From Schmidtea polychroa (Eukaryota): DNA of 64,000 nucleotides. Below are positions 1,188 to 62,591 of this stretch, in pieces. The position numbers and the translations under genes were made by a program. The notes under the pieces were generated by a model. It ran no database searches. It worked only from the letters and a program-made list of their open reading frames with translations, and was not told the DNA's origin. Every line of letters starts with the position of its first letter. Positions within the stretch are counted from its first letter, which is position 1. The DNA is taken from the NCBI GenBank assembly GCA_044892525.1, contig CM097885.1, forward strand, positions 200,260,001 through 200,324,000, read 5' to 3'.

Positions 1188-1203
1188 TTTATAATAATAA
1201 AAA

Positions 1204-34868: not shown

Positions 34869-36021
34869 TCTGTTATCTCAAATCATAAAATCGGTTTGAA
34901 TGACACTGAATTTGGAATTTGCAGATAAATTTCCGATGTACAATAAATAAATTCAGGTGAGAATCTTAAAGTGTAAATCAACCTACGGTTAACCTCAGAA
35001 TCAACCAATCATTAAACATTAACTCAATCAGTATAAAAGTAGATCGAAACGAAAAATTAATGTCGCCTGTATTACATAATTTAGTGGTAGGCAGACGATG
35101 AGTCACCCGGGTAAAGTTTGTATGTATCAAGGCCAAATGTTGTGTATGCGCTTTTATGTTTTCATCAATGTAATTCGATTATTCATTACATACCGAGTCA
35201 ACGCAACATTCTTCATTGTTTCGTACTGCGAATACTTCAATTGAAATTCGCTAGAATTAGTAACTTTTGTGGAGAACTGTTCAATGACGGCAGCAAAGTA
35301 ATGATATCTTATTTATTTTTCGATTTGCCAATTAAATAATGAGTTTTAGAAATGATAACAAGATTTTGTGCATTAATTATGTGTATCAACAAAATTCCAA
35401 TCACTGATTTCGCACATTTAATGCGAATTTATCATAGACAAATTTATGCTTTGTCATTATACGAACAAGGCGGATTAATTAGCGTATATTAAATCAAAAA
35501 TATTCATGGACTTTTGGAATAATATGAATTCAGATATAATCATGAATGGGAAATTGTTATTTATAGCAACAAGTATTTTATAGCTCACTTTTCTTATTGG
35601 ATTTTTAGATTTATATTTTATTGCTCTTTATATTTTATTATATGCTTTAATTTGGTAAAAACAGAAATGGTGATGAATTATCCTAACTCTAAATCTGCTT
35701 TGACAAGTTATTAATATTACATTAATATTACGTAATGCGCTTGGCACGAAGTAATATTATCATGACTAGATCTTTACGATAGAATAAATTTTGAAAGAAT
35801 AGTTTAAATATTACTTTGAAAATTTAATTTTTTCAAAAACTCCAAATCTCACATAATAAGGTTTTGAATACCAAGAAAAAGTCTTATTTTGTAATATAAA
35901 AAATGTTTGGGCAGGTATAAATTGGACTGAAATATTTTTTAATTATTAATAACTAGTAAAACATTTAACTTGTTAACTATTGAAAAATAATCTAAATATT
36001 CTCGTGTATATTTAAAACTTA

Positions 36022-38198: not shown

Positions 38199-41100
38199 TG
38201 TTGGCGTATGTGGAGAAGAAAAATAAATTATACATGCCTTTCCATCACACCTATCAAGCATCATGGCTCCGTTATACATTTTCTACACATACTCCAAATG
38301 ATTGATTGCATATTCCCACATATGAGCCCATGGTGATGTTCCATGTTGGTGCTGCTCACACGGGTCGGAAAAGGTTAGCAGGTGAGCCCCTGCCTTAGGA
38401 CTACTCCTAACCCTTTCTCAGTTCGGGTCCCACGGTGCCTTAGAAGGACTTACCCATATACATGCGTGTCACTCGGTCTGATCCTGGTCCAAAGGAACAA
38501 CCTTCAACCTTAATTATCTTCATTCCGCAGCATTATCTCATCTACTCTAATTGCACAAACAAATATATGAAAGCTCGACAAAACTAAAATCAAACAGAAA
38601 ATTTTATTGACCCTGAAACGATAAAAATATCATTACTACTAACAGATCAACAACAGTCAAAAAGATATAACATTAGCAACATTCACGAGATAATTTACAA
38701 CTCAATGAAGAGGAAATCAAGCTCAATTTTACATCACATTAAACAAAGTTATCCCCATCGGCCAGTATCTCATCTATGTCGACCGGTAATCGGCTATCTA
38801 CAATGTATTTGATGCCCTCAGCTGGAACAATGCGGAAGACTTCCTTTGAGGGGATTGAATGGGAGGACGTTATCTCTTGGATTTTTGATTTCGCCGCCGA
38901 TAAGGACGTCTCGAGTGCTGTCATCGCATCTCGGCGTTTTTGGTTCTTCTCGGCTCGAGTTGGCCGTTTCCGTTTGCGGGTAGTCGGGGGTTTTTCGGTG
39001 TTCGTGGTACCGATTGGTGCTACCAAGATTGGAGCTACGATGGGATCAGTAGGTCCACCTATCTTTGGCTGGTGACATGACAACACCGGGGGTGGAATGG
39101 GCGGCAGTTGTGAGCCGTGCCCCTGGCAGTGCGAGCCGGAAGATGTAGGAGACGGGTGGTGACGAGGAAAGACATTCGTCCCATCCAGAACGGGGAATTC
39201 TCGCACCCGCTTAGCCAATTCTGCCTCCGTATATACCTTATGGAGGGCTTCTGACTGTGCTTTGATGGTGAGCCGCTGACAACGGCTTTCCTCTAGCAGG
39301 CTGTCCCTGCAATGCTCTAATCGGAGAATTTTCTTGCGTTCCTCTTTCATTTGTGGCGGGGAGAACCACGTTCCTTCATAGAGATCAATTCTCTTTTTGA
39401 GAGCCCCGATATATAAGTGGAGTTGGGCGATATCCGCGTTCTTGTCCGCACAAGAAAAACACGGGCGAAGTTCTTTGGCGTTGTTGGACGATGTAGCCAT
39501 CTAGAAAATCAATCATTGTTTATATTTACTCGAAGAAACCTCTATCAGTGTGAAGAAAAATCAAATTTTTGGGCATGGTTTTGGAGTTTGATCAAACATA
39601 CCACCCAACGATGACCCACACACTTCTTCATCCATCTCTATACGCAGTCATTCAGTTGCAAACATTCAAATCTCTTCACCTGATTCGTGTAATTTAAGAA
39701 AAGGAAACGGGGATTCGTATACCAAAAATTCTTTCTACACAAACCTCGCCCTTTGAGTTTAATTTCGGATGGGCCATTCCCAGGTAAAACCCGTCTTTTA
39801 CTTTATCCCCTTCAACCTTGTTCCCATTAGTATATTTTAATTAAGAATTTTTGCCGATATCATTATGGCAATTCGTCGAGGTAGGCCTGCCTAACATTAC
39901 AGAGAAATAATTCACGGCGACGGAATAGATTATTTATGTTTTTATCTCGTTCAAAATTATGGAATTGATCGTGTAATCAGTTGAAAATTCAGCTCTAATC
40001 TACATCTAATTAATTCCAATAACGCGTCGAAAATCGTCGTCATGGAAAACGTTTACTTGTGATTATGCATTATGATTGACTGTGTAGGTGTGTCATTACT
40101 CCTGGTGGTATCTGTAACTGTATGTTGGCTATCTCCGCGAATGATGGTTTATGCTGTTATGATAAATTATTGTATATCGAGTTGTGTAGGGGAAATCCAT
40201 CCCCTTACTTCATCCTATTATCTCGCTATTCTAGAGAAATTTATACCATCATGCCGCTATTACATCACCAAAATCGTTGATTTCCTTTTACACTGCCCTA
40301 TGCATATTTGACTGTGGTGCGTGTGTATGTGCATGCTCAAGTCGGAATATTAGCGGTTGCGTAATAGATTCCTCAAATAAGCAGCCGTAGATGAATCGAA
40401 AAATCAGATTAATCAATCTGAGTGGGCGACAACTTCATAGATTATTGGGTAAGCTCAACAATATCATCTAATTTCCTTTTACGATATTAATTCAGATCAA
40501 TGACTATCAGCTTATTCATTTGACATTTTCCCAGAAAAGTTAACATGTTATCTCCTTCTCCAGGACGTTATCAGATATCTCCTGTCGACTAACTCTACGC
40601 AGGCTAATGCAAATCAACTGATTTCGTTATCGTTGACAACTACTGTCTGCGGGCTCGAAGTAAGAATTTTGATAATTTCACTACAAGATGTTTACTTCCC
40701 TGTCAGCGAGAGATTCTTTATCACTGGCATTGGTGACTCAAGGACGACAATCAAATCGTAAGAGTACATCGACAATGGATGTAGCCGCTAACATCATGAC
40801 GGCACAAATCAGACAGAACCTTGCAAACGCAGAGCGTCACCGAAAAATCGTTGGATTTACTTGCAATCTATGGTCGACACCGTTCTTTCCTAACTACGTC
40901 GATTGACCGGCTGAATATCACGAAAAGAATTTTCCTCCTATCTATGTGGATTATCATCGAATCTGTACGAACGTCACTGCCTATCTCGCTCTGAATTGTC
41001 TGCATTCGGAATTCAAATCATCTCTACATCTACTGGAAATCTCGATTTAACTAAATGAACCGATGGTACGCTCTACAGACGATCGCGCTTGATGAAGGAA

Positions 41101-42433
41101 CGGTCATTTATTAACTGGATGTTCCACCTACTGAGTTTCTTCACCCCTCACGACACACCCAAGAAGGCATTCATTGCTGCCACCTCCTTGCACCGTCATG
41201 AGGGACCAATCAACTCTTTTCCATTCAATCAAATCAACAATATAATAATCAAACTGAATGATAGAAAATGCATAAATAAAATTTACCCGGCGACCATATC
41301 ATTTGGATCTCCGAGTATGATGTTGCTCCTCCTACATGATCGAAACCTCATCGTCTCCTTGGTGGATCTCTAATATGACAAATATCACTCTCTACAAATA
41401 TCACATTCTCTTTTCAGCATGTTCGTGATTTCTTATGCATACCAACCTTTCCACGGTGGTGTCCTCTACTGCAGTGCAATTCCAACTCGTCCACATCATA
41501 CTGGGAGCTCTCAGATGGTACAGTCGTCGGTACCATGAAGAAAGGCAACTTTTCATTTAAATAAATTTATTATAAGAAATTGTTTTATTATATTTATAAT
41601 GATTAACTAAATTAAACTAATAACCATAAATAAAACAACTGTCGAGGCATACCTTGAGTTTCGAAAACTGAAGTTAAATCGGTTGAATTTAAAATTTTTC
41701 CCGAATGGATTTGTAGTTTGGCCTCTATATATTTCTTCCTCGGTTTGGTTTGGTAATCTCTGAACTAGTTCGCTGTAGGATAATTAAAGGTTCCGAAATC
41801 TGTCAAGTCTGTAGAAAAATTTTTTAAAAGTGGTAGTATATAACGAACCGAAGTTTACCTGTAGAAAAATTTTTTAAAAGTGGTAATCTACAGATATTTT
41901 CCGTTCCTTATATATTATTTTTCGTCCAATCAGGACACGACTTGTTTGTATTTTTACTATTTATTATTATTTTTATGTTTTTTATTATAATATATTAGAT
42001 TTTAATGACTTAACTTATTTCCTATTATTATTTTATTTATTTTCTTATTTTTATTATTTTCCTCCTATTTTTCCTGTGGATTTATTGCTACTTTATTGTA
42101 ATATAATTTTTTGTTTTAATTAGACTTAAAGATAGTTTTATTTTTTATTTATTTCTTAAATTTCTCTTTTATTTGTTGTCACTTTTTTACTTATTTTATT
42201 CTATTTCATCTGCTGGGTCCTAAATCGCTTTATTTCTAAATCTCAAGGGGTTTATTGGGTTTTATTTAGTTTGTTTTACTTATTCTTATTCTCTTATTGA
42301 TATTTTATTGTTCCTTTTTGATTTATTAGCGAGAATTTGATGGTACTTTATATTTTTATTTTATTTCGTTTATTTTTCAAGGATTACTTTTCTATTCGCT
42401 CCAGTTTTCGAAACTCCACGTTTTAGCCCAACA
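38199..42433 (-). repeat. Putative 3' LTR, 4235 bp
   Basis: Bounded by TGTTGG (38199) and CCAACA (42433). TATA-like sequence near 41730, AATAAA near 41570, 27-bp direct repeats 41809-41835 / 41859-41885. The second LTR is not in the window and the PPT is non-canonical. Confidence 0.65.
38739..39500 (-). CDS. LTR-encoded hypothetical protein (CxxC, coiled coil, Pro-rich, basic NLS-like stretch)
   Basis: 253-aa ATG-initiated ORF in GC-richer sequence; CFSC, RKRKRPTRAEKNQKRR. Confidence 0.65.
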   Translation of the reverse strand: MATSSNNAKELRPCFSCADKNADIAQLHLYIGALKKRIDLYEGTWFSPPQMKEERKKILRLEHCRDSLLEESRCQRLTIKAQSEALHKVYTEAELAKRVREFPVLDGTNVFPRHHPSPTSSGSHCQGHGSQLPPIPPPVLSCHQPKIGGPTDPIVAPILVAPIGTTNTEKPPTTRKRKRPTRAEKNQKRRDAMTALETSLSAAKSKIQEITSSHSIPSKEVFRIVPAEGIKYIVDSRLPVDIDEILADGDNFV

Positions 42434-42664
42434 AATCACTCCGGGGCCCGTTAAAATTGCGCCCCGCAATTCACATAATATCATACGTTTAACTCATACC
42501 TTTTTTCGGCATAACAACTAATTTCACGGTCAACATTCACACAAACATAAAATTAAAATAACTAAATAATACTTTAATTAAACAGATAAAAGGACAAATA
42601 TAAGCAAGCAGTGGCCACTTTAGGTGACCGGATTTATACACACAAAGTTTATGAATGGTCGATG

Positions 42665-43291
42665 TCACATGATCTCAAGGTTCGGAATGTCTTGGTTGGT
42701 TGAATTCTGGGTCGGATGGCTGGTTGAAGTTGTTATCGTGGGGAGCTGGATTGTAACAGGCATTTGGTCAGGAGATAGATTTTGTTGCATTTGGTCGGGT
42801 GGGTTTGGTTGTTGAAAATGTACTGCTCGTTTATGTTTATTTTTCGATCGTGGGTTCTTTCTTTCGTGTTTCTCGGATAGTGACTGGTTTCTTCTCCATG
42901 TTCGATGAATATCATACGCTTTCCAGATGACTAGTGCGCAGATGATAAGGGTTTCACTGATGGTAGTATAGAGTAAGACTTGGCTTTCTTTTACTTCCTT
43001 CTTCATGATGATTTCCTTCAAGGATTGTTGGGTGGTTTGTTCTTGTAAGAGAATTTCGAGCTGTTCGATTTTTTGGGTTTGTAGGTGGAGTTGCATTTGA
43101 AGTTTTTGCCAGACGGCTTTGTTCCAGCATTGTTTCGGGATGTTGTTGGAGAGCTTTCTTTCGCTTTTCAGTTTGGTTAACGGGTTTTGCTGTTTCTCGG
43201 GATTCTCCCAGAATGTTGGGATTGGCTGCCACATGGGTATTCCGTTTATCGCTATCATCATTATTGTCACCAGGGTTGCTCCGAACCACAT
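42665..43291 (-). CDS. Accessory type I membrane-like protein
   Basis: Hydrophobic N-terminus MWFGATLVTIMMIAING, coiled coil, TM-like LLYTTISETLIICALVIW, basic and Q/P-rich tail. Confidence 0.7.
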   Translation of the reverse strand: MWFGATLVTIMMIAINGIPMWQPIPTFWENPEKQQNPLTKLKSERKLSNNIPKQCWNKAVWQKLQMQLHLQTQKIEQLEILLQEQTTQQSLKEIIMKKEVKESQVLLYTTISETLIICALVIWKAYDIHRTWRRNQSLSEKHERKNPRSKNKHKRAVHFQQPNPPDQMQQNLSPDQMPVTIQLPTITTSTSHPTQNSTNQDIPNLEIM

Positions 43292-43346
43292 ACTACTATA
43301 CGAAAATTTTTATTTACAATTATTTACATTGATCATTCATCTTTAA

Positions 43347-44048
43347 TTATTGCCGGGTTTTCTTTTTACGGGTTTTCTCGGATGTTCTCATCACTCTCGT
43401 TTCTGCTTTTATTACTCGTTTTCTCAATTCGGGTAGTACTTTTAATTGTTTGTCTCTTTCGTCTAACTGTTGCCTTAGGGTTATTATTTTTTCTTTTAGT
43501 GCTTTTATTTCTTGTGTTGCTCTTTCGAGGTTTTTATGGTTCATTATCTGTAGAAAATCATTTTCCCTTTCCCCGTCTTCTTCGTTGTCTATTTCCTGGT
43601 ATTTGTTGTTCATTCGTCTCATTATCTCACATTCTTTCTGTTTTTGGTGTAGTTGGAGTTGTAACTCTTTCAGGCTTTCTTGGTGTTTCCGTGCCTCGGT
43701 TTTCCAATAGTCACTAATCACTTCGTCGGCCTTTCGACTGGCCCTCTCCTGCCATAATTCTTCCGTGATCTTTTCCCAATTTCTCCCTCGCTTTCTTTGC
43801 TCGTGAAGCCATTCGTTTTCTTCCTCTACTTCTTTCTTTACTCCTTCTAACAAGATATATTCTCTTTTCAATACTTTAATCATTTTTCGATTATCTCTCC
43901 ACCTTTCAACTAATCTTTCGTTTTCCTGTCTCTCTTCTTGTAATTCTTCCTTGATAGTTTTCTTCCTCTCTACTTCATCAACTTCAATTTCTCCCTCTTC
44001 TAACTCGATTATAGATGTTATGCTGGGTTGTCCGTTTTCAGTGTTCAT
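43347..44048 (-). CDS. Accessory coiled-coil protein
   Basis: 233-aa ATG ORF, E/K/R-rich heptads, upstream TATAAGC. Confidence 0.75.
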   Translation of the reverse strand: MNTENGQPSITSIIELEEGEIEVDEVERKKTIKEELQEERQENERLVERWRDNRKMIKVLKREYILLEGVKKEVEEENEWLHEQRKRGRNWEKITEELWQERASRKADEVISDYWKTEARKHQESLKELQLQLHQKQKECEIMRRMNNKYQEIDNEEDGERENDFLQIMNHKNLERATQEIKALKEKIITLRQQLDERDKQLKVLPELRKRVIKAETRVMRTSEKTRKKKTRQ

Positions 44049-44222
44049 TTTCTATAATATATACATAATTAATAATTGCGCTACAGTGCGGCTTATACTT
44101 ATACATTTATATGTTATTTTATAATCAGGGTTACAGTCCCTTTCATACTTTTACTGTACCATTAATTTTTTTGGTTGGGATACAGGTCCCGATTTTTATA
44201 TTTTTTATCTTTCCTTTTATCT

Positions 44223-45260
44223 TTATACAAAGGTCTCTTCCTGGCCTACATATCCCTCATCGCTTTCTACTGACGTTTGTAATTGGAGTGCGATGGGATC
44301 AAATGGGATGTAGTACCGGGGAATCTGCGCTCTAAGTTCTTGCACTTCGTCTCTTAGTGCTCTTGACACGTTAAGTTCCTCGTCCAACAGGTATGTTAGA
44401 TACCTGGTTTCATCGTCTCTTACCTCTATCTGTTTTTCTAGCTCTTCCGCTTTTTCGCCGTTTTCCCATTTCTTGATCTCTATCTCCAGATTTTTAAGAT
44501 TTTCGTTATACATTTTCCTTTCGTTTTCTAACTTTTTGTTTTTCCCCGCCAGTACCATATTTCTCTGCTCCAGAGCTCCTTGGTATCCGTTGACATCTCG
44601 TTCTAGTTCTGCGACCTTATTCACCAGTTCCACGAGTCGTCCTGACTGTTGAAGTATCAGTTCTTCCATTGCGGCATTCTCGTGCTCCCTTATGGAGATT
44701 TTCATGGCTAGATGTCTTTCAAATTCCATGGCTTTGGTCTGCCATGTTTGGCTTCGGGTCGCAATCTTTCTGAGCCGTTTCAGTTCTTCTCTTATGACCA
44801 GATTTTCCTCCCATTTGCCTTGTTCGCTTTCGTATTCTAATCTCATAGGCAATTCTTTCATTTCTTTTTTCATCTCTTTGTTCTGCCGCTTCCAGTTTCG
44901 GGCTTCTGCCAATAGGTGATTCATTTTCCTTCCTTCCTTTTGTTTTTCTGCTTCTCGTTTTGTGTTTTCGTCCGTCAATCGTTTCCGTGCTTCCTGCACT
45001 AACTGTTTTAAATAGTGGCTGTGCGCTTCTTGGCGAGTGTTTTCCAATGATGCCCACTTAGAGGCTCTTTTGCATGCTTCTGCTTCGGCTCTTAAATTGT
45101 TTACTAACCACTGATATTTGTTATTCTCGTATTCCCTGGCCTCTTCGAGATGGTTGTGGGTCTGGTTCGTCAATTGTAACATTACTTTGACCCATTTTCC
45201 CTTATGGATTTTATTGACTTTGGTTTCGTGGTTTGGGGCTTCAGTTCCTTCTTGTGTCAT
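44223..45260 (-). CDS. Accessory coiled-coil protein
   Basis: 345-aa ATG ORF, long heptad repeats, upstream TATAAGC. Confidence 0.75.
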   Translation of the reverse strand: MTQEGTEAPNHETKVNKIHKGKWVKVMLQLTNQTHNHLEEAREYENNKYQWLVNNLRAEAEACKRASKWASLENTRQEAHSHYLKQLVQEARKRLTDENTKREAEKQKEGRKMNHLLAEARNWKRQNKEMKKEMKELPMRLEYESEQGKWEENLVIREELKRLRKIATRSQTWQTKAMEFERHLAMKISIREHENAAMEELILQQSGRLVELVNKVAELERDVNGYQGALEQRNMVLAGKNKKLENERKMYNENLKNLEIEIKKWENGEKAEELEKQIEVRDDETRYLTYLLDEELNVSRALRDEVQELRAQIPRYYIPFDPIALQLQTSVESDEGYVGQEETFV

Positions 45261-45480
45261 CTTTGTCTAAATAACGATATCATTAACTTAACGTTGTACG
45301 CTTATATCTGGTTTATTATTTATTTATTTTTATAATTCGTTATAGGAGTTGTTTTAGGAGTTTTTCGCTTAAGTTTACCTTTGGTAGATTTGGGGGGAAT
45401 TTTTCTACACTACTATATAATATTTTACTGGATATATACGCCGATATTTACAATTAGTATATACAAAATTATTCGTCTCT

Positions 45481-46869
45481 CTACTCAGTCCTACCCTTCC
45501 CGTCTCGCCTCACCGCTATTTTCATGTATATAGTGTCGTTTCTCGTCATGTCTTCTACTTTCCGCTGTAGGATGAAATTTGGTGCTCCAGTTGCTGGTCC
45601 TTCTTCTTCCAAGGGCCTTTGGTAACATACGAGGTTTCCCGCTGTATGGAAACTCTGTTCGTGTATACTTTGATAGTTCATCATTGCGAGGTCTATTTTT
45701 GCTTTGAATGGCCATTCTATTAACTCGTCGTATGGCCCTTTGCACATCAAGAAGAATACTGAGAAATGCGTTCCGTATGCACTTCCATCCCCATTGGGGT
45801 ATGCTTTCATTTTCATTTTATACCCGTTTTTCCATGAGTAGAATGCTGGACTTAGTAATGTTGTATCCTTTCCATTTCTCGCTCTCTGCATCTTCTCTTT
45901 TACTCCCGTTATTTTCCATATGTACGGAGCCGTAGGTATTAATTCGTTGAGGTTTAATTCGCTTACTTTTTGATGTAGTTCTTTCACCATAATGTTGCTA
46001 GTTTCTACTAGATCTGTCTGTATCTTTGTACTTGTTCTCGCCTCTTCAAATGCTTCCTTTTCTTCCAATAGTTCTTTTACCAACGCTTTTAGCGAGACTA
46101 TTTCTCTTTCTAAGTTTTCGGTTTTCCTTTCGTTTTCCTGTAATACCGTTGACCATATTTCCGCGTGTGTTGATACGTTTTCTGCTAGATGTTGGGGTAA
46201 TTCCCCTCGGTGTAATTGTTTCGGACATCCCCATTTTCCTAGCACACACGTTATCTTTTTTCTTTCACACTCTTTTAGATGTTGAGCGAGTTTTATTACT
46301 CCGGGTTTATCGCATTTGTTGGGGCATTCTCCTCTGAATTCTGCGCACACTTTCTCCTCTTGTATGTTGTGATGTTGACTGATTAGTTTCTTCCAGGTGT
46401 CGTTTTCTCCGCAATACTCGCATTTCTCTAGTCTTTCTTCGCATCGACTTTGATGTTCTGCTTCTTCATTGACTTTAATCTCTTCTTGGCAACGTTTGCA
46501 TTGACTGATTTTATACTCACATTGCTCCATATGTTGCCTCACTTCCCATATCACTCCTCGCCAATTACATGGGGTGTTTTTACATCCTAGGTTTGCATTC
46601 AACATATCTTTTACAGCTGCTTTATCTTCGTTTGTATCTCCCAAACTTGTTATCATTGTTTCTTTGCATACTGGGCACCATTGTGGTCCCTTCTTTATTA
46701 TCTCCTCTACACATTCTCTGCACATTCTGCATCCACATCTGGTTTGGTGAGGTTCTCTTAATAAGCTCTTGCATATTCCACACGTTACATGGTTGTGTAT
46801 TCGAATTGTGGTGGACTTTCTGATTTGTTCAACAATTTCTCTGAATTCTTCTCGTTGTCGCTTATCCAT
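45481..46869 (-). CDS. TRAF: TNF receptor-associated factor homolog (RING - TRAF zinc fingers - coiled coil - MATH), intronless, inside the retroelement
   Basis: CGIC...CGCRMCREC...CPVC RING; CKNTPCNW...HMEQC and CEYC zinc fingers; MATH YIWKI...SPAFYS...GYKM...YPNGDGSAYGTHFSVFF...GPYDELIEWPF. Confidence 0.93.
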   Translation of the reverse strand: MDKRQREEFREIVEQIRKSTTIRIHNHVTCGICKSLLREPHQTRCGCRMCRECVEEIIKKGPQWCPVCKETMITSLGDTNEDKAAVKDMLNANLGCKNTPCNWRGVIWEVRQHMEQCEYKISQCKRCQEEIKVNEEAEHQSRCEERLEKCEYCGENDTWKKLISQHHNIQEEKVCAEFRGECPNKCDKPGVIKLAQHLKECERKKITCVLGKWGCPKQLHRGELPQHLAENVSTHAEIWSTVLQENERKTENLEREIVSLKALVKELLEEKEAFEEARTSTKIQTDLVETSNIMVKELHQKVSELNLNELIPTAPYIWKITGVKEKMQRARNGKDTTLLSPAFYSWKNGYKMKMKAYPNGDGSAYGTHFSVFFLMCKGPYDELIEWPFKAKIDLAMMNYQSIHEQSFHTAGNLVCYQRPLEEEGPATGAPNFILQRKVEDMTRNDTIYMKIAVRRDGKGRTE

Positions 46870-46958
46870 TTCTATAATTATATGTATACATATATTCGTT
46901 ACTGGTACAGTTTCGTATTTTTATTTACATTTATTTACATTGCTATTTTAGGTTATAT

Positions 46959-47342
46959 TTATTGGCTGGAAGAGTCGGCCTCTTGTCCGCCCTCTTCCCT
47001 GTTGGTTAACCATTCTGACCAGTCTTCTATCTCCTCTCGCTCCATCTCTTCCGCGATTCTTATTAACTCCTCTTCTTGCACCTGGCTGTATCGTGATATT
47101 CGGTCTATCTCTCGCTGCATTTGTTCTATTTTCATTCGTTGGTCTTCGATTATTCTTACATAATTGAAGCCTTTATTTAAACTTTCGACTAAGCTTCTTT
47201 GTACAGCGAGTCCTTGTTCCTGTAAATTCGAAATCACTTGAGTTAACATTGCACATTGTTGTTTCCACATCTCCTCGGTTGTTGTACTGTGGTTTACTTC
47301 CTCGCCTATTCGCTCCATTCTTAATTTATATATACTTTTCAA
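46959..47342 (-). CDS. Small accessory coiled-coil protein
   Basis: 127-aa ORF (TTG start; first Met at 47318), acidic W-containing tail, upstream TATAAGC. Confidence 0.6.
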   Translation of the reverse strand: MKSIYKLRMERIGEEVNHSTTTEEMWKQQCAMLTQVISNLQEQGLAVQRSLVESLNKGFNYVRIIEDQRMKIEQMQREIDRISRYSQVQEEELIRIAEEMEREEIEDWSEWLTNREEGGQEADSSSQ

Positions 47343-47486
47343 TCCTTATCTAATTTTATTTTCATATTAATTATCCCCATCATTATATACTATTGATACC
47401 GCGCTTATATAAAAATATAGAATACTGTTATATAAATAAATATTTCCTACTTACTTTTTACAATCTATATACAGTCATAATCCTTT

Positions 47487-50400
47487 CTATATACGTGAGC
47501 TTGGAGGGCGCTGAGCATTCCAGGCCTCCACCCACTGTTCCTGCTTGATATTACTTGGTCGTTTTACACGATGTTGAAAATTTCTTATTCTGGCCATTTC
47601 TAGTTCTCCGTGATGCCGTCTATCTTTGATTATTTTTATTGTCCCCCCCGTTATGATTAAAAAGGCCCCTGTTATTATTATGCCGCTGATCCACATCATC
47701 TGTTTTATGCTTATAATTTCCGCTTTTTCCTTGCTCGTTATTGTTGATATTGCTTCTGTGCTTTTTAGATTACCGTCTTTGCCATTTCCTTTCATCATTC
47801 CTCGTATTCTTGCTATTTCCTCGTTCATACCTTCCTTTGCCATTTTTTGTATTTTCTCCATCTCCTCCTCGGATACATAATTGTCTTGATGTTTCTCACT
47901 GTTTTTCTTGCGTTTTCCTTGCTCATCTTTTTCATCATCGATTTTTCTTTTCTTCCCTCTTTTCCCAGGGTATCGTCGACATTCTCTCGCTGTATCTTTT
48001 CTCCAGATGCATATTGTGTATTCTTTTGGAGGTTGTTGCTGTATTACATATTGTAGACAGTCTTCACCCGGTCTTAATCTTGCGATGCAGACTTTGTGTT
48101 CTTTTCTTGGCTGGAGTTGCGTTATCACTACCTCACCTCCTTTTCCCAGGTGTACCTCCTTCCCTTTGACTTTCGTTATTCTCTTTCCTTCTCGATTTCG
48201 GTATGCTTCTTGTATTCTTACTTCCGTTATTGGTTCTGCATCTTCATTTTTTAACACTAGTCTCTGATAAGCTCTAGACATACATCTTCCTAATATACAC
48301 CTTTCTTTTAAATCCCATTCTTCTTTTAGATCCCATTGCTGCTCTTGTACTTGTTTTTTCTTTTCTTGTTTTAGTTCTTCCTCTTTGTTGTCCTTATTTT
48401 CCGTTTCTTTGGCTTCTTTTATCGTTCTCATTCCTCCCTGGGCTGTTATCATTTCCACCATTGTTAGTACGAGTATCATTATCATCATATTTGTCTCCAT
48501 TTCTTTGTTGGTAAAAAGTAGGCATACCCTCTGTTTTCCACTATTCGTCTTTTCTTCTTGCTTCATTCGGTTTCTCGGGTTATTTTCCTCTTTTTTCCTA
48601 CTCGCGTCGTTATTTTCTTGATTATTCTCCTCTGATTTCTCTTTCTCTTTATTCCCGTTTCGACCTTTTTCATTATTATCGTCGTCTTTATCGTCTTTAT
48701 CGTCTTTATCTCCCCCGCTATCGTTTAAAATGTCGTCCTCGACATTTATATCATTCAACAATCTGCGGTATGCCGTTAGCACTCTGTTTCTTGCTAATTT
48801 TGCTTCGAGTTCGAACTCCTTTCTGCCTGTTGCTACATGTCTCTTTCTATTCCATTCTTTCACTAATTCTCTTAATTGTATCCGACGATGTTTCCCGATT
48901 CGCTTTTGTTCGTTTAGATTCTGCGTGAATTTGAGATCTTCCCTGTTTAATACGATCATTATGATTTTCGGAGTTCCTCCTTTTGTTAGTGTATTTTTAA
49001 CCATAGCATTTTCTCCGTTTTCGTAGAACTCATTTATATTTATTGCATATTTATTGCTTTGTGGTATTCTCCATGTTAGCAGCAACTTCATGGCTTCTAA
49101 GTTCATCCGTATCGTGTTCCATTGGAACTGTGACGTGTTTTTACAGATATTTTCTACCTCAGTTCTTGTAGCATTTTTACAAATGAATCTAATCATTTCC
49201 AAGTTTGGTTGTATTGTTGCCCAATCCATGGCAGAATTTCCTTCGTTTGATATTTCGTCAAGTCTTGATCCCGATCGATGTAGTATATGTAATGTTTTCG
49301 GGTGTATATTTGTTATGGCTGCATACATCATTGCTGTTTCTCCTTGTTCATTTTTTGCATTAGATTCTTCTCCGAAGTCTCTAAGGATTCTTATGATGGT
49401 TATTGCTCTGTTTTCTTTTGCTGCTAAAATGGCTTGTTGTAATGGTGTTCTTGAGTCTTTTGTTGGTAAGGTGAATGCTAGTGGTATAAATGTTTTTATT
49501 TTTCCTATGTCTAGATTTGTGGTCTGATCTCTTGCGTAGGTGTGTACTGTTTTGGTTATTTTTGCTAGTATCGCTTCATCGGATAGATCTTGCATTTCTT
49601 CAAAGAATACTTCTTTAGCCTTACGTACTACTATCTCTTGGTCGGAGTTTATTGTCTTTGGTTTACTTGTTGTTGCTATATCGGTTATTGGTTGATCGAC
49701 TTGTTCCTCAGACTCTCTTGCTTTTACTTTCTTCCTTTTTATCTTTTTCTTGTTCGAATTGTTAATGCGTTCCTCTGCCGTTAGAACTTGAATAATGCTT
49801 AGGTAAGTTTCTCGAATGTTGTTCATATTTTCCATCATATATAATACACTCACGGTTTCCCAAAATTTTACTTGTACTTTATCGGTAAATTGAGATATAG
49901 CTTTTTCGAAGTTGATAATTCGTTTTCTGATTAGTTGTTCGTCTTTGTGATTTGAGAACTTTATGCCACGTTGTAGTAGTTGATTTGGAATTTCGAATAG
50001 GTGATGTCCTCTCATCGCTTCTCTCATCAAGGTATTTTCTCCTTTGGTAAATGTTTCGTTTATATCTACCATATAATCGTTTTTGATCGGGTTCCTCCAT
50101 GCAATTAGTATTCCAGTAATTGTTATTAATTTCTCTTTGATTGCAGTTAATAGCCCGTCATACATGTTTCCTATCTCTCTATTATCCTCATATGATAATA
50201 GATCTACTAAGATTATGAAGGCTTCCGTACTTTTCCCTTCGATTGCATGATGTAGTGCATTTTTCTGGTTGTGGTCTTGTGTGGTTATCTTTGACCCAGT
50301 TTCAAGTAATGCGATGATAATATCTTTAGCTTTATCCCGATTGGCTGCTATCATTAGTGGAGTGTAACCTTGGTTGTTTTCTTGATCTGTCGAAATGTTA

Positions 50401-51566
50401 CAATCGCGAAATGCTTCAATTGTTTCTAATATCTGTTCGTTACTACCCACCTTTAAAAGCTTGTGCAGGGGTGTGTCTCCGTAATGGTCTGTGATCGTGA
50501 ATAATATAGGCCATTGACTTTTAACTACCCTGAGCAATGGGTGTGTTCTTTCTCGGTTTGCATAATTTTCGATCATTGTTAGCAGACCTCCCAATATCTC
50601 AAAATCTAATCTGTCTTCTGCCCATCCGGGCATTTTAACTTTTACTTCCTTTATGATTTTCTCGGCTTCTGATGGTTGTAACCCTAATCGATTACCTGTT
50701 GGTTCGTTTATTTGCTGTAACATGTTTATTCTATACGTTTGTGATCTTGTCGTTAGTGTACGTCCTTCTGGCTGACTGGTGGCGGTTTTCGGAATTGGCT
50801 TACATCGTGCAACATTTACGTATATTGGTCTTGTAAAAGGGTTGTTCACTAATCGTACTCTTACATTAGTTTCTCCGACGAATAGAATCTCATACGGCCC
50901 TTTACCGTTTCGTTGTAATTTTTTGGTGGTTCCTGGAATTAATTCTGGTGTTTCAATCATCACCCAATCGCCTGTTTGAAACGTATGCTGTTTGACGTTT
51001 TTCTTTCTATCATGTAACTCTTTGTAACTTTCTTGATAAAATTTTATATTCAATCCTGCGGTTTCCCAGATTTCCTGCATTCTTTCCTTGAACTTGGTTA
51101 CATAATCGTCTATTTCCATGTATTGTGATATCGGTGGCTGATATTCTAAATCCATTGGCATATTGCATTCTCTGCCGTACATCAACTTGAACGGACTCAT
51201 CTTTGTGGACGCGTGAATCGACATTCTGTAAGCCATTAGACATAATTTTATATATTCATCCCAGTCTCGTTGATGACGATCGACATAATTTGATAACATT
51301 TGAATCAGTGTTCCATTGAATCTTTCTGTCATACCATTAGTTTGTGGATGGTACGGTGATGTTCTTAATTTTGCGATCTTGAAGTAGTTGGTGACTTCGC
51401 TCATTATTTCGCTCATGAAATTCGTTCCTTGATCCGTCAGTATTTGTTTCGGCGTTCCATATCGACAACATATTTCCTCTACTAATATTTTTGCGATTGT
51501 TCTTGCTTTCTGATCTGCCATTGCGAATGCTTCGGGGAATTTTGTCAAATAATCTGTGATTACCAA
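47487..51566 (-). CDS. Polyprotein C-terminal part: integrase core, two ankyrin-repeat modules, signal/TM-anchored protein
   Basis: ITDYLTKF, LTDQGTNF, TERFNGTL (DDE); KGPYEI; GDTPLH, GYTPLMIAA, GETAMMYAA ankyrins; MMIMILVLTMV and WISGIIITGAFLIITGG hydrophobic segments. Confidence 0.93.
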   Translation of the reverse strand: MVITDYLTKFPEAFAMADQKARTIAKILVEEICCRYGTPKQILTDQGTNFMSEIMSEVTNYFKIAKLRTSPYHPQTNGMTERFNGTLIQMLSNYVDRHQRDWDEYIKLCLMAYRMSIHASTKMSPFKLMYGRECNMPMDLEYQPPISQYMEIDDYVTKFKERMQEIWETAGLNIKFYQESYKELHDRKKNVKQHTFQTGDWVMIETPELIPGTTKKLQRNGKGPYEILFVGETNVRVRLVNNPFTRPIYVNVARCKPIPKTATSQPEGRTLTTRSQTYRINMLQQINEPTGNRLGLQPSEAEKIIKEVKVKMPGWAEDRLDFEILGGLLTMIENYANRERTHPLLRVVKSQWPILFTITDHYGDTPLHKLLKVGSNEQILETIEAFRDCNISTDQENNQGYTPLMIAANRDKAKDIIIALLETGSKITTQDHNQKNALHHAIEGKSTEAFIILVDLLSYEDNREIGNMYDGLLTAIKEKLITITGILIAWRNPIKNDYMVDINETFTKGENTLMREAMRGHHLFEIPNQLLQRGIKFSNHKDEQLIRKRIINFEKAISQFTDKVQVKFWETVSVLYMMENMNNIRETYLSIIQVLTAEERINNSNKKKIKRKKVKARESEEQVDQPITDIATTSKPKTINSDQEIVVRKAKEVFFEEMQDLSDEAILAKITKTVHTYARDQTTNLDIGKIKTFIPLAFTLPTKDSRTPLQQAILAAKENRAITIIRILRDFGEESNAKNEQGETAMMYAAITNIHPKTLHILHRSGSRLDEISNEGNSAMDWATIQPNLEMIRFICKNATRTEVENICKNTSQFQWNTIRMNLEAMKLLLTWRIPQSNKYAININEFYENGENAMVKNTLTKGGTPKIIMIVLNREDLKFTQNLNEQKRIGKHRRIQLRELVKEWNRKRHVATGRKEFELEAKLARNRVLTAYRRLLNDINVEDDILNDSGGDKDDKDDKDDDNNEKGRNGNKEKEKSEENNQENNDASRKKEENNPRNRMKQEEKTNSGKQRVCLLFTNKEMETNMMIMILVLTMVEMITAQGGMRTIKEAKETENKDNKEEELKQEKKKQVQEQQWDLKEEWDLKERCILGRCMSRAYQRLVLKNEDAEPITEVRIQEAYRNREGKRITKVKGKEVHLGKGGEVVITQLQPRKEHKVCIARLRPGEDCLQYVIQQQPPKEYTICIWRKDTARECRRYPGKRGKKRKIDDEKDEQGKRKKNSEKHQDNYVSEEEMEKIQKMAKEGMNEEIARIRGMMKGNGKDGNLKSTEAISTITSKEKAEIISIKQMMWISGIIITGAFLIITGGTIKIIKDRRHHGELEMARIRNFQHRVKRPSNIKQEQWVEAWNAQRPPSSRI

Positions 51567-54500
51567 TATATATATATATTTCCTCTATCTGATTCTGGTA
51601 GTGGACCGACTACGTCCATTGATATCATTGTCATTGGTTCTGCTGGTACTGGCATTGGCTTTAATGGTGCCTTCCATTTTGTTCCCGTGTTTTTTCTGGT
51701 TGCGCAAGTTATGCAATTTTTCACCCATTCCGTTACATCCTCGGTCAATGTAGGCCAAAAATATTTTTGTTTCATTCGTGCCAACGTCTTTTTAGATGAC
51801 ATATGTCCTCCGAGTCTTCCGTCATGGTATTGTGTTAGTAGATCTTTACGTCTATTCTCGGGAATGCACATTAGTCTTTTCTCGCCATCCATTATCAATA
51901 ACCAATCTTTCTCGATAATATATCGATGTCGATGTTTATCCATATGCTCCTTCAATTTTTGATCTTTCTCATATACCTCTGCTTTCCCTGTTTTCACATA
52001 TTCAATGATTTGCTTCAACTCTGTATCCTCTTGTTGGTCTTTCCGTAATTGGCAAAAATCTAAATCTTCTGCTACCATCAGACATATTCGTTGCATTTCG
52101 TGATCTACTAAATCTGGAAAGATAAATCTGGACATACAATCCGCATTGGCATTCGCTCTTCCCGCTTTGAATTTTATGAACGGTGAATATTCTTGTAACT
52201 GCATTGCCCATCGCATCAATCTACTTGAAGCTTCTTTGTGTTGACCAAGCCATACTAATGGTTGATGATCCGTGGTGATACATATTTCGTGTCCCCATAA
52301 CAAATATCGAAAATGTTTAATTGCTTGTATGATTGCTAACGCTTCTCTCTCGGTTACGGAATAGTTTTTCTCGTGCTTTTTAAACGTTCTACTGTAGTAT
52401 CCAATCACTCTTTCTTTTCCTTCTTCATCCAGTTGTCCTAATATTGCTCCGGCTGCATATCCACTTGCATCTGTTGCTAATAGGAACGGTTTCTTGAAAT
52501 CAGGATGTACTAGTATTGGGGCTTCAATTAATTTATCTCGCAATGTCTCAAACGCTTTTTGTTGTTCTGCACCCCAAATAAATGAAATATCCTTTTTCAC
52601 TAATTCCTGTATTGGTTTCGCAATACCTGCATAGTTTTTGATGAATTTTCGATAATATCCGCATAATCCGAGAAATTCTTGAACTTGGGTGACAGTTTTT
52701 GGTGCTGGACATGTTTTTATTTTTTCTATGTTTCTTGGATCTGGTTCTTTGCCTTTTGCTGACACTATGTGTCCTAAGAACGTAACCTTTTCTTTTGCCC
52801 AATCACATTTGGATGGTTTAAGTTTCAGTTTCCATTGTCGTAATCGAACGAACACGTTTCTGATATCTTCCAAATGTTGTTCGAAAGTTGCTGAATATAT
52901 TAATAAATCATCAATATATACCATACACTGCTTGATCCCGTGTGTGACAAAATTCATACATCTCTGGAATGATGCTGGGGCATTGGTCAGTCCGAACGGC
53001 ATTTTCCTGAATTGGTATAGATCTCGGCCCAATGTGAATGCTGTTTTCTCTTTGTCTTCCTCCTTGACTTTGATCTGCCAATATCCACTTTTCAGATCTA
53101 AAGATGTAAAATATGCGGCCCCCTGTAACATAAGTAACATCTCATTGATGTCTGGTAAAGGGTATGTGTCTCTTTTTGTTACTGCATTTAATTTCCGATA
53201 ATCGATACAGAATCTCTGAGTACCGTCTTTTTTCTTCACCATGACTACTGGAAATTGCCATGGCGAACAACTTGGTTCGATCACTTGTGCATCTAGCATT
53301 TTTTGTACTTCTGCTTCGGCTATCTCTTTTTGCTTCTCTGCTAGTTTGTATGGACGTAGTGCGATTGGAGTTTCGTCTATTAATGGTATTGCGTGTAGTG
53401 TAACATCGCATGCTCCCAAATCTAAATCCGAAATTGCGAATATATCTTTATATTCTATCAATAATTGTTGAAGTCTCTCCTTTTCTTTTTCCGTTAGCAA
53501 GGTGCTATCAATTATCCATAATTCGTCCGCTTTCGTTGTTTCGTTGGTGATTTTTGGTAATTCGATGTCTATCATGGGTGTCAATCTACCCAATCTTTCA
53601 TTTTCATATATGATCTTGTCTTCTTCCTCGAAATTTGTGATGTTAATTGGTATTTCCCCGTCTTCATTTATTGTTATTATTTCTCTTGCTAATGGTAATT
53701 CTCGTCGTTTTTCGAATGATTTGCTTGGCTCAAAAATGACTTCTCCTTCCATTCCTGCATCCACTTTTATTTGACATATCATCTGTGATTTTGCGGGTAC
53801 AATTATTTTCTCCGGACATCTAATTATTGCGTTCATCTTGCATATTCTACCCATTTTGTCTTTTAGACACATTGTTGTTAAATCGATTACTACTTCCTTA
53901 AACAATTCCGGCATTAAATCCGTTCCGATTATACATGGTTCACTCAGTTTGGGTATCACCGCTAGATACGTTTCAATTTCGTTATCCTGATATCGTAACG
54001 TAGTCCACCATCTTCCTACTACGTCTACGGTTTCTTTACTGCATGCAATAATATGGATAGTTGTTTGTTCGATATCTTTCCAACATTTACTGGGTATTTG
54101 GTTTATTGCTATTGCTGATACGTTTGCTCCGGTATCTATCATTGCGCTTGTCTCTTTCCCGTTGATTTGGATCATGACTGTTACTGCCGCACCTCCTGGT
54201 GAACTCATCACTGCTATCGTTCTTACGTCGTCCGCTTGGTCTACACTTTTCGTTCTTCGGGTCGGCATATAGTTCATCCCTGGTTGACTTGGTAACTGTG
54301 GATACCTATTTTGTGTCATGGTCAAAGCTGTTTGTTGTCCAACGATATCTGGTGGTATATAACTTCCGTTGGCTATCCAGGTATTTGTTTTTTCTTTCTC
54401 CCAATATGGTGCTGTTTCTATTGGCTTTTCATTCGGGTTTCTACTTGGATATGGGTATTTGTCATTCCCGTTGTCGTCATCATCACTATCGCTGCTGTTT

Positions 54501-57500
54501 GATCGATTCCTAAATCTGTCTAAGAATTTTGGTTTGTTCTTTTTCAGTTGCGTCCTTGTTGCTTCATCATACATTGTTTTCCGAAATCGTCTACCGACTT
54601 CCTCGTCAGTTCCTTTTATTTTTGTCAGTATTTTGATCAATCGTTTTATTCTATGTATGTCTTTAGAATGACCGTGCAACACCATTGTTTTTGCCAAAAA
54701 TGGTAGAAAGCCTACTATCAATTTCCAATTTACCTTCTTTTCTCTCTTATAGATATCAAAACACGCTAACATTTGAGTCAATATTACTCTAACTATCTGG
54801 ATAATAAGAATGATTCCCAATATTCCTGCCATCATTTGACCGAACACTAGAAATCTTCCCCACATTGCTTTCATCATGTTTGACGTGGCTTGTTGAAAAT
54901 GATCAGGTGACAATAATAGTTCGTAATTGGGGCCTGACTGGAAATTCGTTCCCCCAGTTATGGTAACCATATTCGATAGAATGGATTCCCGTCTTGCTGG
55001 GAATAATACGTTTAATCGTGCCGTTTCTAAATCCTCTGGTGAGTACATACCTGTTTTTGACACATCAATTGGTTTGAAATCTTGTTCTGTTGCGAGTTCT
55101 ATTAGTCCAAACTTTTTAGGCTCTTGTACTTCGGTTTTTACTGGTAACATTATCCATTTCCCATCGGGTTTTTCATATAACGGTCCGTATGCATTTGAAC
55201 AGTTAAAGGTGTTCGGATAAAATCCAATTGGGTTCATGATTCGAGTGACGGGTTGAACGAATCTGTTTCGCCCTTTGTAACTAATTTCCAACTCGTTTGC
55301 GCATTTCCCTGGTGGAATTGTGGGCTTTCTTGGCAGTCGCGCAAATGTCTTGGTACATGCATATGTATACATTACCTCTCCCACCATTCTACCAAAATGT
55401 CCATCCGGTAACGGGAGTGATGGCATTGTGTTATCTGGGTGTGTTATTGCGATGGCTAATTTTGTTTTTAGTATCTCTTTATTCAATGAACAGTCATTTT
55501 GTATAAGATCGTAATACACTTTTTGCATTGTCGTTTGTCCTCGGTGGAACAAGAAGTCCATCTTATTATTGGCATACAGGTACAATTTTACGTCCTCCGT
55601 TGCTACCTTTCCCACTGCTCGGTCTATTACTTGCCTTGACATGTAGATACCTGCGTAGTTCGTCCGGTATACTATACTGTCACATTTGGTGGTCTCTTTT
55701 TCTCTAATGAATCTCATGCCGATGTCTGGATCATCGGTAATTAATGCCGTTGGTGTTTTTTGGGTTGTGAGTCTCTTTTCTTTGGGGGATGGCGGAACTG
55801 GTTTCCCATTTCGCATCCTTACGTTTCCATTCTCTTCATCGTCATCCTCGTTTTCGTAAATTTCTCCTTTTACTTCATTGAATAGAGCACTTTTTAACAA
55901 TTGGAGTCGGCATTTTTGGGTGTTAGCTTCATATATTATAGTCGAAATCCCCGTTCTACACACGTTTTCCGTAGCTCTGCATGCTGGGTTGGTTTTCATT
56001 TGATAGTTGTTTGCGTCGAATTGTGCTTCGTATTCCTTCAACTCCACTGTGTAGGACTCAATTACTACTACTCCTGATATCACCTCTCCTCTGATCGTAT
56101 ATGTGCCTCCGTTACATGATCCATCCGTTGATTTTACTCGTCCGGCTACATAGATACTTTCCGTCTTGATCATTCCGCTTTGTCCGTGTATTGTTACTCC
56201 ATCCCTGATTCTCATCGCTCCGGTTCTAAAAAGCTCTTTACAGTCTTCCCGTTGTATAGGTACTATTTCTTTATCTAATCCAGGTAATATGAGGGTTGAA
56301 TATGAGTATTGTCCACAGTAATATGCCAACACTTTCTTCGATACTACGCATTCTCTAGCTTGCGTTCTAATGAAATCTGATTCTTGGTATACGTGATAGG
56401 AGACTTTCTTTTTTACTATATCTAATTTATTCGGAGACGCCTGTCTACATTCCTCTATATCTCTCAGGGAGTATCTTTCTCCTATTATCGAATTGTCACA
56501 GTCGTAAATAGTAAATCCCGCGGCTCCACTGGTGCAGAGCATCCATATCATCATGGTCATCATTAGTGAATTAATCGACGCTTTTCTGCTGGCTGGGTCT
56601 TTCAATGGCAATTCCCATTCTAGCTTGTTTAGTAATTTCTTCAACCGAATTTGCATTGATCTCTCTTGCTCGTTTTTTCGTGGCGCTTGTATGAGTCTTT
56701 TCCACCCACCGGCGCGGATAATATGTGGTTCGATTGTATTTTCGATGATTGTAACGGTCATTTCTACATGATTTGCGAATTGTTTGTTAGGTATTTTCCT
56801 CGCTGCTAATCCCATCAAATTGTACATTAGATACGTTAATACTACTAAATGATGTTCGTCGTCGTTTGCGTTTAAAGTTAATTGTTCAATTACTCTTCTT
56901 GTCTCTTCCCAATCGGTTTTAGTGGTTTTTGTCTTCTCTTTGATTAATTTCGGAATTATTCCGGATATTGTATTCCATAGTTGTCTGGCGTCTACGCTTG
57001 CTACTTTTCGTTGCCATAACCGTCGCAATTGTGGGTTCGTTATTATTAGCATATCTTTTACTAGCTCTCGTATCCATTTTTCGCCTCTTTCGATAGTTGG
57101 CTGGGCCTCTTTTAGATCCCACACTATTTTATCCAGTTTCTCTAATCTGACTTGTCCTTGTTCTTGTTTCAGTTGTTCTCTAGTTTTAAATTCCGGTTTT
57201 TCTCCTTGCTTCTTGGGTCTCCCTTTTGCCCGTTTTTCCATCATTGTTCCGGCTTCCCTTGTATTTTCATAATTCGGGTTTCTCTCGTTATCCGTTCTTG
57301 GCAATGAGCTATCGTTGTTTCTCAGCCATTCGTTCCATTCGTCTATTATTTTGTCCGTTTGACCTTCTGGTGTTGCTTTCGTTGGTCCTTTCTGTCGTTG
57401 GAATTGTTCGTCGGTTTCGGTTTCTGTTGTATTATCGATAATCTCCTCGATACTCAGCTTATTTGGCTGCTGATAGCTAGTTGACGGTTGGCTTGTTGTC

Positions 57501-61924: not shown

Positions 61925-62591
61925 TCATTCCTTTTTGCCACATTCAAGCACAGACACCGTTTTAGGGCCTCTGTTATACTTCTCTTCATTTCCCCTCATA
62001 CACTTCTTCGCGGAATATAATTACCCATCAACCCATATTTTTCGTCGATTTTAAATTATCTATTTGGGGTAGTAACAATTATCTATATAGTCGTATAAAT
62101 TATCTATAGTTAGCATTTATAATATCGATAGGTCGTTGTCAGTTACTGCTTATTACCTCCCATATTTTCTTAATCCTTTTACGCGGTTCCGCTATTTTAC
62201 TTAATCTTTCATCTCTGTTTCCCCTTATTTGGTTCTACTCTGTAACCAAAACAAAATTCGTTTAACCGGTTTAAACCAAAAAAAATTCTGTAGAACTTTG
62301 TCTACTTATCTGGGATCCCTTTTAATTAATTAATCACCTTCCTCTTTTACTCATCACTTATTCTTTATTTTCATTATCTCTTTAATTCATTTTCCTTTTC
62401 AGTTTCTCTTTCTCACTGAAAAAAAAATTTCATTATTACCTCCCACGAGCTCGTTTAATCCTTTCTAAATTCAAATACCATATTTCAAACTCACTTTGCT
62501 TCTAGCTAGCTTTAATATTCCATCTCACTAGTAATTTAAATGTTATCAACTTGTAGCTTGAATGCTATCTCACTATTACTTTAGGCCTTTA

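Follow-up and report, generated by a model that had tools for sequence, protein, structure and literature searches.

Spacer motifs suggest that the accessory genes of a Burro-like planarian retroelement have their own promoters and answer to a host stem-cell RNA regulator

Results

We analyzed a 64,000-nt stretch of Schmidtea polychroa DNA (contig CM097885.1 of assembly GCA_044892525.1; hereafter the window), whose minus strand, from the window end at 64000 down to at least 42600, is taken up by a single large retroelement. A Pfam domain search placed Retrotrans_gag (E 9e-10) and zf-CCHC (E 5e-8) at the N-terminus of the polyprotein and, in frame between gag and protease, a Monjiviricetes_fusion domain (E 6e-72; best stretch aa 1869–2208) that precedes RVP at 2398. 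Protease, reverse transcriptase, RNase H and integrase follow one another in the Burro-like order, with ankyrin repeats after them. Judged by these predicted domains, the element is a Burro-like giant gypsy. Five open reading frames (ORFs) in sense orientation, a, TRAF, c, d and e, lie downstream of pol (Table 1) and are preceded by spacers of 168, 89, 220, 174 and 55 nt, respectively (706 nt in total). The stand-alone TRAF ORF contains a MATH domain (E 8e-25).

All five spacers carried matches to UGUAHAUA, the consensus of the Pumilio response element (PRE) given in PMC4995099. The DNA pattern TGTA[ACT]ATA was present eight times in sense and never in antisense orientation, and position 5 was always A or U. 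Dinucleotide shuffles of the 706 nt of spacer sequence contained 0.65 PREs on average and never reached eight (0 of 10,000); shuffles that kept 3- or 4-letter words did not reach this number either (0 of 5000). No other PRE was found on the minus strand of 38001–64000 (25,294 nt outside the spacers), and GC-matched flanking windows held at most two (340 overlapping windows). In an unbiased scan of 8-mers with one wildcard, TGTANATA ranked first, a result as extreme in 4 of 1000 shuffles. Furthermore, seven of the eight PREs start 14–30 nt after an upstream stop codon. The first PREs follow four of the five upstream stops by 14, 20, 16 and 19 nt, as compared to distances of 155, 70, 205 and 37 nt to the next ATG. 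Such anchoring to the stop occurred in 340 of 200,000 random placements (634 if either anchor was allowed). Spacer RNA folded no better than shuffled sequence (z from –0.92 to 1.34 in six of six pieces), and searches for structured RNAs, known RNA families and tRNA genes found none. The sites thus occupy the setting of PREs: they lie on the sense strand, 3′ of a stop, in AU-rich and clustered context without significant folding, while their status as 3′ untranslated region (UTR) is given by position only. Clustered PREs in AU-rich context are described as predicting stronger repression in Drosophila cells (PMC11182014).

A first-pass annotation of this DNA had explained the same spacers by five separate transcription units in two promoter classes, one marked by TATAAGC and the other, before TRAF and ORF e, by a 26-bp element with forkhead-like sites and AATAAA. 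Both copies of the 26-mer are indeed present and differ by one mismatch (25/26). The pair is unique in the window (two matches at up to three mismatches; 0 in 100 shuffles), and the best 26-nt match between shuffled spacers had at least four mismatches in 300 of 300 cases. Its core is TGTAAATA twice, i.e. two PREs 10 nt apart that fit UGUAHAUA. This tandem pattern occurs three times in the window, every copy in the spacers, and the third pair had escaped the first-pass annotation. The 26-mers start 16 and 15 nt after the upstream stop, of ORF a and ORF d, respectively, as opposed to ending 47 and 14 nt ahead of the downstream ATG.

The forkhead-like and AATAAA patterns can both be read in the 26-mer, but neither is enriched in the spacers. 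RYAAAYA, the forkhead consensus, was seen seven times (mean 4.7, reached in 1850 of 10,000 shuffles), and AATAAA likewise seven times (mean 6.0, reached in 3933 of 10,000). A forkhead-bound promoter for TRAF and ORF e would agree with the fit of GTAAATA to RYAAAYA at two sites 10 bp apart and with the occurrence of the 26-mer only before the two ORFs without TATAAGC. However, three of the eight core sites read TGTATATA, which holds no forkhead site, so that the pattern covers five of eight; all sites lie on one strand and their position follows the upstream stop, and element 2 is only 14 nt away from the ATG of ORF e. Moreover, the third tandem pair occupies a spacer with TATAAGC, and the notion of two exclusive regulatory classes fails on this point. 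We consider the five-unit forkhead model improbable. Because the 26-mer is anchored to the upstream stop, strand-specific and a match to an RNA-binding consensus, it does not represent a second promoter class and its sequence and position are better explained by an RNA element belonging to the upstream gene than by a promoter.

ORFs a and d both end with CAA-TAA, and the 26-mers agree beyond the PRE consensus. This suggests that one 26-mer was copied from the other, and the two are therefore not independent. Taken further, all shared words could be functionless relics of inter-spacer copying during reverse transcription combined with AT-rich drift, in an element whose pol is broken in the present copy. 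Against this, the core recurs in the three spacers without a 26-mer, which share no other long similarity (four PREs versus 0.34 expected; 9 of 20,000), and searching all five accessory proteins against each other revealed no paralogy (best E 0.15). It would be very surprising if the pattern consisted of relics. Paralogous duplication of whole ORF units was rejected on the same E value. Another word highlighted by the first-pass annotation, TTATAGAAA, precedes the starts of both TRAF and ORF d (44048). Its exact occurrence at two starts was matched in 0 of 5000 shuffles, but it was picked after the fact, and shared 9-mers are common in the spacers (4925 of 5000).

TATAAGC was found on the minus strand at all three spacer positions claimed for it (Table 1). 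The window holds seven copies: three in the spacers, one within the pol 3′ ORF at 47709 and three on the plus strand. The proposed distance of 40–60 nt upstream of an ORF holds for 45260 and 44048 (46 and 49 nt) and does not hold for "47342", where the start codon is TTG; the ORF has its first in-frame ATG at 47318, TATAAGC starts 91 nt upstream of this ATG, and three ATGs lie between. As a fixed motif, TATAAGC reached three of five spacers in 2 of 5000 shuffles. Some 7-mer with at least two G/C was common to three of five spacers in 667 of 5000 shuffles, an equally extreme 7-mer appeared in 163 of 1000, and two of three TATAAGC-to-start distances fell within 3 nt in 20,907 of 200,000 random placements. 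TATAWAW, the canonical TATA consensus, is located 25, 28 and 26 nt upstream of TATAAGC in all three copies (4 of 10,000 shuffles, post hoc). The pairs fall in the three long spacers (168, 220 and 174 nt), while the short ones (89 and 55 nt) are devoid of a canonical box, and the 160 nt preceding ORF e (43291) contain no TATAA. For comparison, a wild-type core-promoter oligonucleotide of HIV-1 includes TATAAGC, and the motif is lost in the TATA knockout of this oligonucleotide (PMC3419132). Internal promoters before the ORFs at 47318, 45260 and 44048 are plausible on this sequence evidence, and we lean slightly towards the presence of all three. To this extent, the earlier proposal of internal promoters is plausible for some of the ORFs. 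A scan for bacterial promoters was uninformative (9 predicted versus 10.2 expected). Short GT..AG leader introns can be drawn after TATAAGC (80, 33 or 39, and 33 nt); these are candidates that we do not rely on.

An AG ends 1–8 nt before each of the five accessory ATGs (85 of 10,000 shuffles), and a YAG precedes four of them (59 of 10,000), although both results are modest and post hoc. Since AG precedes all five ATGs, the first-pass view that the accessory genes are expressed separately "rather than" as spliced subgenomic RNAs is unsupported. The AGs are similar to the four intron ends that were inferred for the host in the window, and each lies downstream of the last upstream ATG. Donor-like AG/GTA sites occur in the 5′ region of the element at 63611, 62441 and 62158. 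These features would also suit an element without internal promoters. In analogy to complex retroviruses, all five ORFs would then be spliced from the long terminal repeat (LTR) transcript, with the AG ahead of each ATG as acceptor, and share one 3′ site; the stop-proximal sites would repress RNAs with long 3′ UTRs or shield them from nonsense-mediated decay. Such a scheme agrees with the best poly(A) context, which lies behind ORF e, and with the missing PRE of this last ORF. Nevertheless, it leaves the three TATAWAW–TATAAGC pairs and the extra length of exactly those spacers unexplained, and the AG result on which it draws is modest. We therefore regard purely LTR-driven splicing as quite unlikely. 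Coupled termination–reinitiation is disfavored because spacers of 55–89 nt carry upstream ATGs.

UGUA is also the element bound by CFIm, and TGTA as such is enriched in the spacers (16 versus 6.8 expected; 0 of 10,000 shuffles) with a strand bias of 16/3 compared to 59/102 in coding sequence (Fisher p ~1e-4). The UGUA sites might thus be 3′-end processing signals of the CFIm type (UGUA plus AAUAAA). Each ORF would then have its own poly(A) site in the next spacer, leaky use would let genomic RNA pass, and downstream ORFs could be served by operon-like trans-splicing, a scheme that is compatible with the PRE model. The 26-mer can be parsed as TGTA-AATAAA twice (second copy AATAAT, then AATAAA). 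Flatworm operons are reported to be mostly two-gene and were defined at ≤300 bp, and trans-splicing of a spliced leader (SL) is reported in S. mediterranea (PMC12582326). Against 3′-end processing, AATAAA is not enriched and does not occur near the sites of pol and TRAF, and the spacer hexamers are weak in downstream U (0.20–0.38, eight of eight checked) compared to 0.47 after ORF e, where we place a candidate common poly(A) site. UGUA is reported to be absent upstream of poly(A) signals in S. mediterranea, where CFIm-59/68 was not found (PMC5068929). Finally, 3′-end processing does not explain the constant AUA at positions 6–8 of the sites, and we consider it an unlikely, though not far-fetched, primary role.

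Table 1 Features of the retroelement and its spacers (window coordinates)
Feature	Positions	Strand	Remarks
Polyprotein frame	51560–61924	–	gag, CCHC knuckles, Monjiviricetes-type fusion protein, protease, RT (reverse transcriptase), RNase H, integrase zinc finger; first ATG 61369; frame stops within integrase
pol 3′ part, different frame	47487–51584	–	integrase core and ankyrin repeats; stop opens first spacer
PRE TGTATATA	47466–47473	–	14 nt after pol stop; imperfect TGTAAAAA at +25
Candidate promoter 1	47403–47434	–	TATATAA 47428–47434; TATAAGC 47403–47409, 25 nt on; predicted function
ORF a	46959–47318	–	119 aa; three upstream ATGs in leader; AAG immediately before ATG
26-bp element 1	46917–46942	–	tandem PREs 46932–46939 and 46922–46929; two overlapping AATAAA
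TRAF ORF	45481–46869	–	462 aa; RING, TRAF-like zinc finger, MATH; no TATAAGC upstream; TAG at 46872–46874
Third tandem PRE pair	45445–45465	–	TGTATATA and TGTAAATA, 16 and 29 nt after TRAF stop
Candidate promoter 2	45300–45334	–	TATAAAA 45328–45334; three AATAAA; TATAAGC 45300–45306, 28 nt from TATAAAA start; predicted function
ORF c	44223–45260	–	345 aa; charged, helical-looking; no Pfam match; TAG at 45267–45269; no PRE close after stop
Candidate promoter 3	44091–44123	–	TATAAAA 44117–44123; TATAAGC 44091–44097, 26 nt on; predicted function
Eighth PRE TGTATATA	44058–44065	–	exception in position: 158 nt after ORF c stop, 17 nt before ORF d ATG
ORF d	43347–44048	–	233 aa; charged, helical-looking; no Pfam match; TAG at 44052–44054
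26-bp element 2	43306–43331	–	tandem PREs 43321–43328 and 43311–43318; one overlapping AATAAA
ORF e	42665–43291	–	208 aa; no TATAA within 160 nt upstream; TAG at 43296–43298 and 43293–43295; no PRE after stop
Candidate common poly(A) site	42520–42578	–	ATTAAA (42578), then most U/GU-rich tract of 41400–47520 (U 0.47); after last ORF; predicted function

Several further features of the element were recorded. The integrase is split over two frames at 51560–51584 (minus strand), and the copy may be defective or carry an assembly error. By eye, the C-terminus of the pol 3′ ORF (47487–48560, minus strand) shows a hydrophobic stretch like that before the env region; a Cys-containing segment and another hydrophobic stretch follow, and the region might encode an additional membrane protein. 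The N-terminus of ORF e is hydrophobic, and the protein also has a transmembrane-like stretch near aa 104–123 and PTQNS (PxQxS) in its tail at aa 193. PxQxS/T is a TRAF-binding pattern, and the ORF e product is possibly a receptor-like partner of the element's own TRAF; it gave no Pfam match above the cut-off and no credible match in the ESM Atlas (0.76). One of five segments scanned in the element showed a weak Bcl-2 signal (E 0.019, below the cut-off) and no PDB sequence match, and the other four yielded no ubiquitin or dUTPase family. A RING ORF at 63610–63999 (minus strand), whose RING goes by the nickname IAP-type, is cut by the window end and has a donor-like AG/GTATG directly after its stop. 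An 80-nt tandem repeat array lies upstream of gag at 62589–63026. The window contains no LTR pair. At 41850–41930 (minus strand), ATTGG followed by TATATAAGG forms a candidate LTR-type promoter that also contains TATAAG, and two 32-nt repeats start at 41809 and 41859. A 253-aa ORF at 38739–39500 (minus strand) has no Pfam match and does not show the A-rich bias of the other element ORFs; it may be part of the LTR or of a different element.

The flanks are AT-rich (~20–36% GC) and, with a host nuclear-receptor gene at 33280–34870 (minus strand; short inferred introns of 56, 313, 48 and 99 nt), indicate an animal host and would suit a planarian. Polinton/Maverick-like genes lie at 789–4688 (minus strand) with a double jelly-roll capsid, an adenovirus pX-like gene and, by eye, ATPase- and integrase-like ORFs. 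No PRE was found within 60 nt after the stops of the latter genes. Other mobile remnants, at 9045–10924, 16268–17446, 26439–27466, 28795–29406 and 31413–32733, comprise hAT and Tc5/pogo DDE transposases, a gag-like ORF with a weak zf-TRAF match behind it, and an element of the GIY-YIG (Penelope-like) type that has inverted arms.

Searches for relatives returned pol proteins of 46–52% identity at best. Among 12 of them that were scanned, four had the fusion domain before pol and one had ankyrins after the integrase. For TRAF, 3739 candidates included 21 distant TRAFs of cellular type (23–29% identity); for the env region, none of 2592 candidates matched. In a scan of bacterial and archaeal genomes, 0 of 77 pattern matches were confirmed, and phage records contained no match to TRAF.

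Discussion

The regulatory pattern in the spacers is real and non-random; it differs from the one first proposed and belongs to an element of a known kind. We favor a model that joins stop-proximal PREs, three internal TATA promoters and splicing, and give it, as a whole, even chances of being correct. The upstream half of a spacer would be an RNA element of the preceding gene, with one or two PREs 14–30 nt past the stop, and the 26-mer would be the best-preserved form of it, with two PREs 10 nt apart overlapping AAUAAA. That the stop-proximal motif acts as an RNA-level element is probable in view of its strand and position. As the reader of the UGUAHAUA sites, Pumilio is the marginally favored candidate on account of the consensus match. 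Most likely, a host PUF protein would bind the PREs and, in stem or germ cells rich in Pumilio, repress or destabilize both the genomic RNA and the mRNAs of the accessory genes. RNA interference against Dj-pumilio figures in a list of treatments that cause loss of neoblasts and/or defective differentiation (PMC3552358). A TATA-type internal promoter (TATAWAW, with TATAAGC 25–28 nt on) would occupy the downstream half of each of the three long spacers. We infer from this arrangement three internal units, namely a plus TRAF, c, and d plus e. TRAF and ORF e would be second cistrons, reached via splicing to a YAG just before the ATG, either in cis over the first ORF or, the host being a flatworm, by SL trans-splicing.

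A number of observations weigh against this model. The stop of ORF c has no nearby PRE, the eighth PRE lies 17 nt before an ATG, and none follows ORF e. Four of the eight PREs sit in the two 26-mers, which may go back to a single copying event, and five of the eight also fit the forkhead pattern. CTGTANC occurs in four minus-strand copies in two spacers (46910, 44185, 44136 and 44086; 0 of 1000 shuffles as extreme, post hoc), with just two further copies in 38–64 kb; as it shares the UGUA core but is not a PRE, it fits a UGUA reader such as CFIm equally. TATAAGC alone is not beyond chance once its post-hoc choice is counted, and it may be a TATA box or mark the start-site position. If it is a TATA box, the upstream ATG of ORF c (–23) lies outside the mRNA and that of ORF d (–18) at the cap; if it is the start site, upstream ATGs are part of the leaders. 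The tests of the TATAWAW spacing and of the AGs were conceived once the sequence had been inspected, in a series of more than a dozen, and the pattern is known from a single element copy. Finally, the model gives no account of why the element would retain sites for a repressor.

Stop-proximal elements can shield transcripts from decay. In a more far-reaching version of the model, the env-bearing element would express its cargo for apoptosis and TRAF signaling by a viral-style program with three internal promoters, two of which drive two-gene units separated by splicing or SL trans-splicing, and a Pumilio(-Nanos) switch behind the stops of pol and three cargo genes, which would tie expression to stem or germ cell exit or shield long 3′ UTRs from decay. 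We regard this version as doubtful. The present copy yields exact predictions, i.e. three start regions, five acceptor-like AGs, one favored 3′ end and eight Pumilio-type sites. If Pumilio reads these sites, a transposon family would come under a neoblast and germline repressor without the involvement of Piwi-interacting RNAs; our literature search, which did not cover subscription papers, found no such case. An expansion of TRAF genes is reported in planarians (PMC6109357), and stand-alone TRAF transcripts from such elements might explain part of it.

With respect to known elements, the closest likeness is to Burro/GYPSM1 of planarians as described in PMC6431247, with which the present element shares a gag with CCHC knuckles, ankyrin repeats, tandem repeats and, in frame between gag and pol, a fusion protein of the mononegavirus-like type. 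Burro-like giant gypsy elements are further marked by BCL2-like, ubiquitin-like and dUTPase-like segments, a BIR domain, paired LTRs and a total length over 30 kb; the Bcl-2 signal below the cut-off may correspond to the first of these. In the Dugesia tigrina element of the same source, TRAF/MATH likewise forms an accessory ORF of its own, but there it lies upstream of pol, as opposed to downstream and among five sense ORFs in the present element. The section on Burro/GYPSM1 in that paper is silent on how accessory ORFs are expressed, and passages of PMC8532177, PMC11410931, PMC6338049, PMC13238120 and PMC6109357 describe no internal promoters or PREs in Burro. Transcription from within an element has a precedent in Oikopleura Tor3b/4b, where an internal promoter, located in pol or the next spacer, drives the gene downstream of pol, while the sister Tor3a elements splice instead (PMC4402516). 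There, it concerns one env gene and was shown by rapid amplification of cDNA ends, as compared to up to three predicted promoters for non-env cargo in the present element. Simian foamy virus and mouse mammary tumor virus, as cited in PMC4402516, similarly carry accessory genes, located between pol/env and the 3′ LTR, that are transcribed independently of the LTR.

Complex retroviruses usually have one internal promoter, and we know of no PRE array in them. The arrangement of same-strand genes less than 300 bp apart, with AAUAAA near a 3′ splice-site-like AG, is reminiscent of flatworm and C. elegans SL1-type operons (PMC12582326). The sites themselves resemble the PREs of the hunchback Nanos response element (NRE) in their exact UGUAHAUA core, clustering and AU-rich context, and two of the eight have the upstream triplet AAU that is contacted by Nanos in hb NRE2 (PMC4995099). 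Unlike cellular PREs, the predicted sites reside in retroelement intergenic spacers of 55–220 nt and are repeated after successive ORFs.

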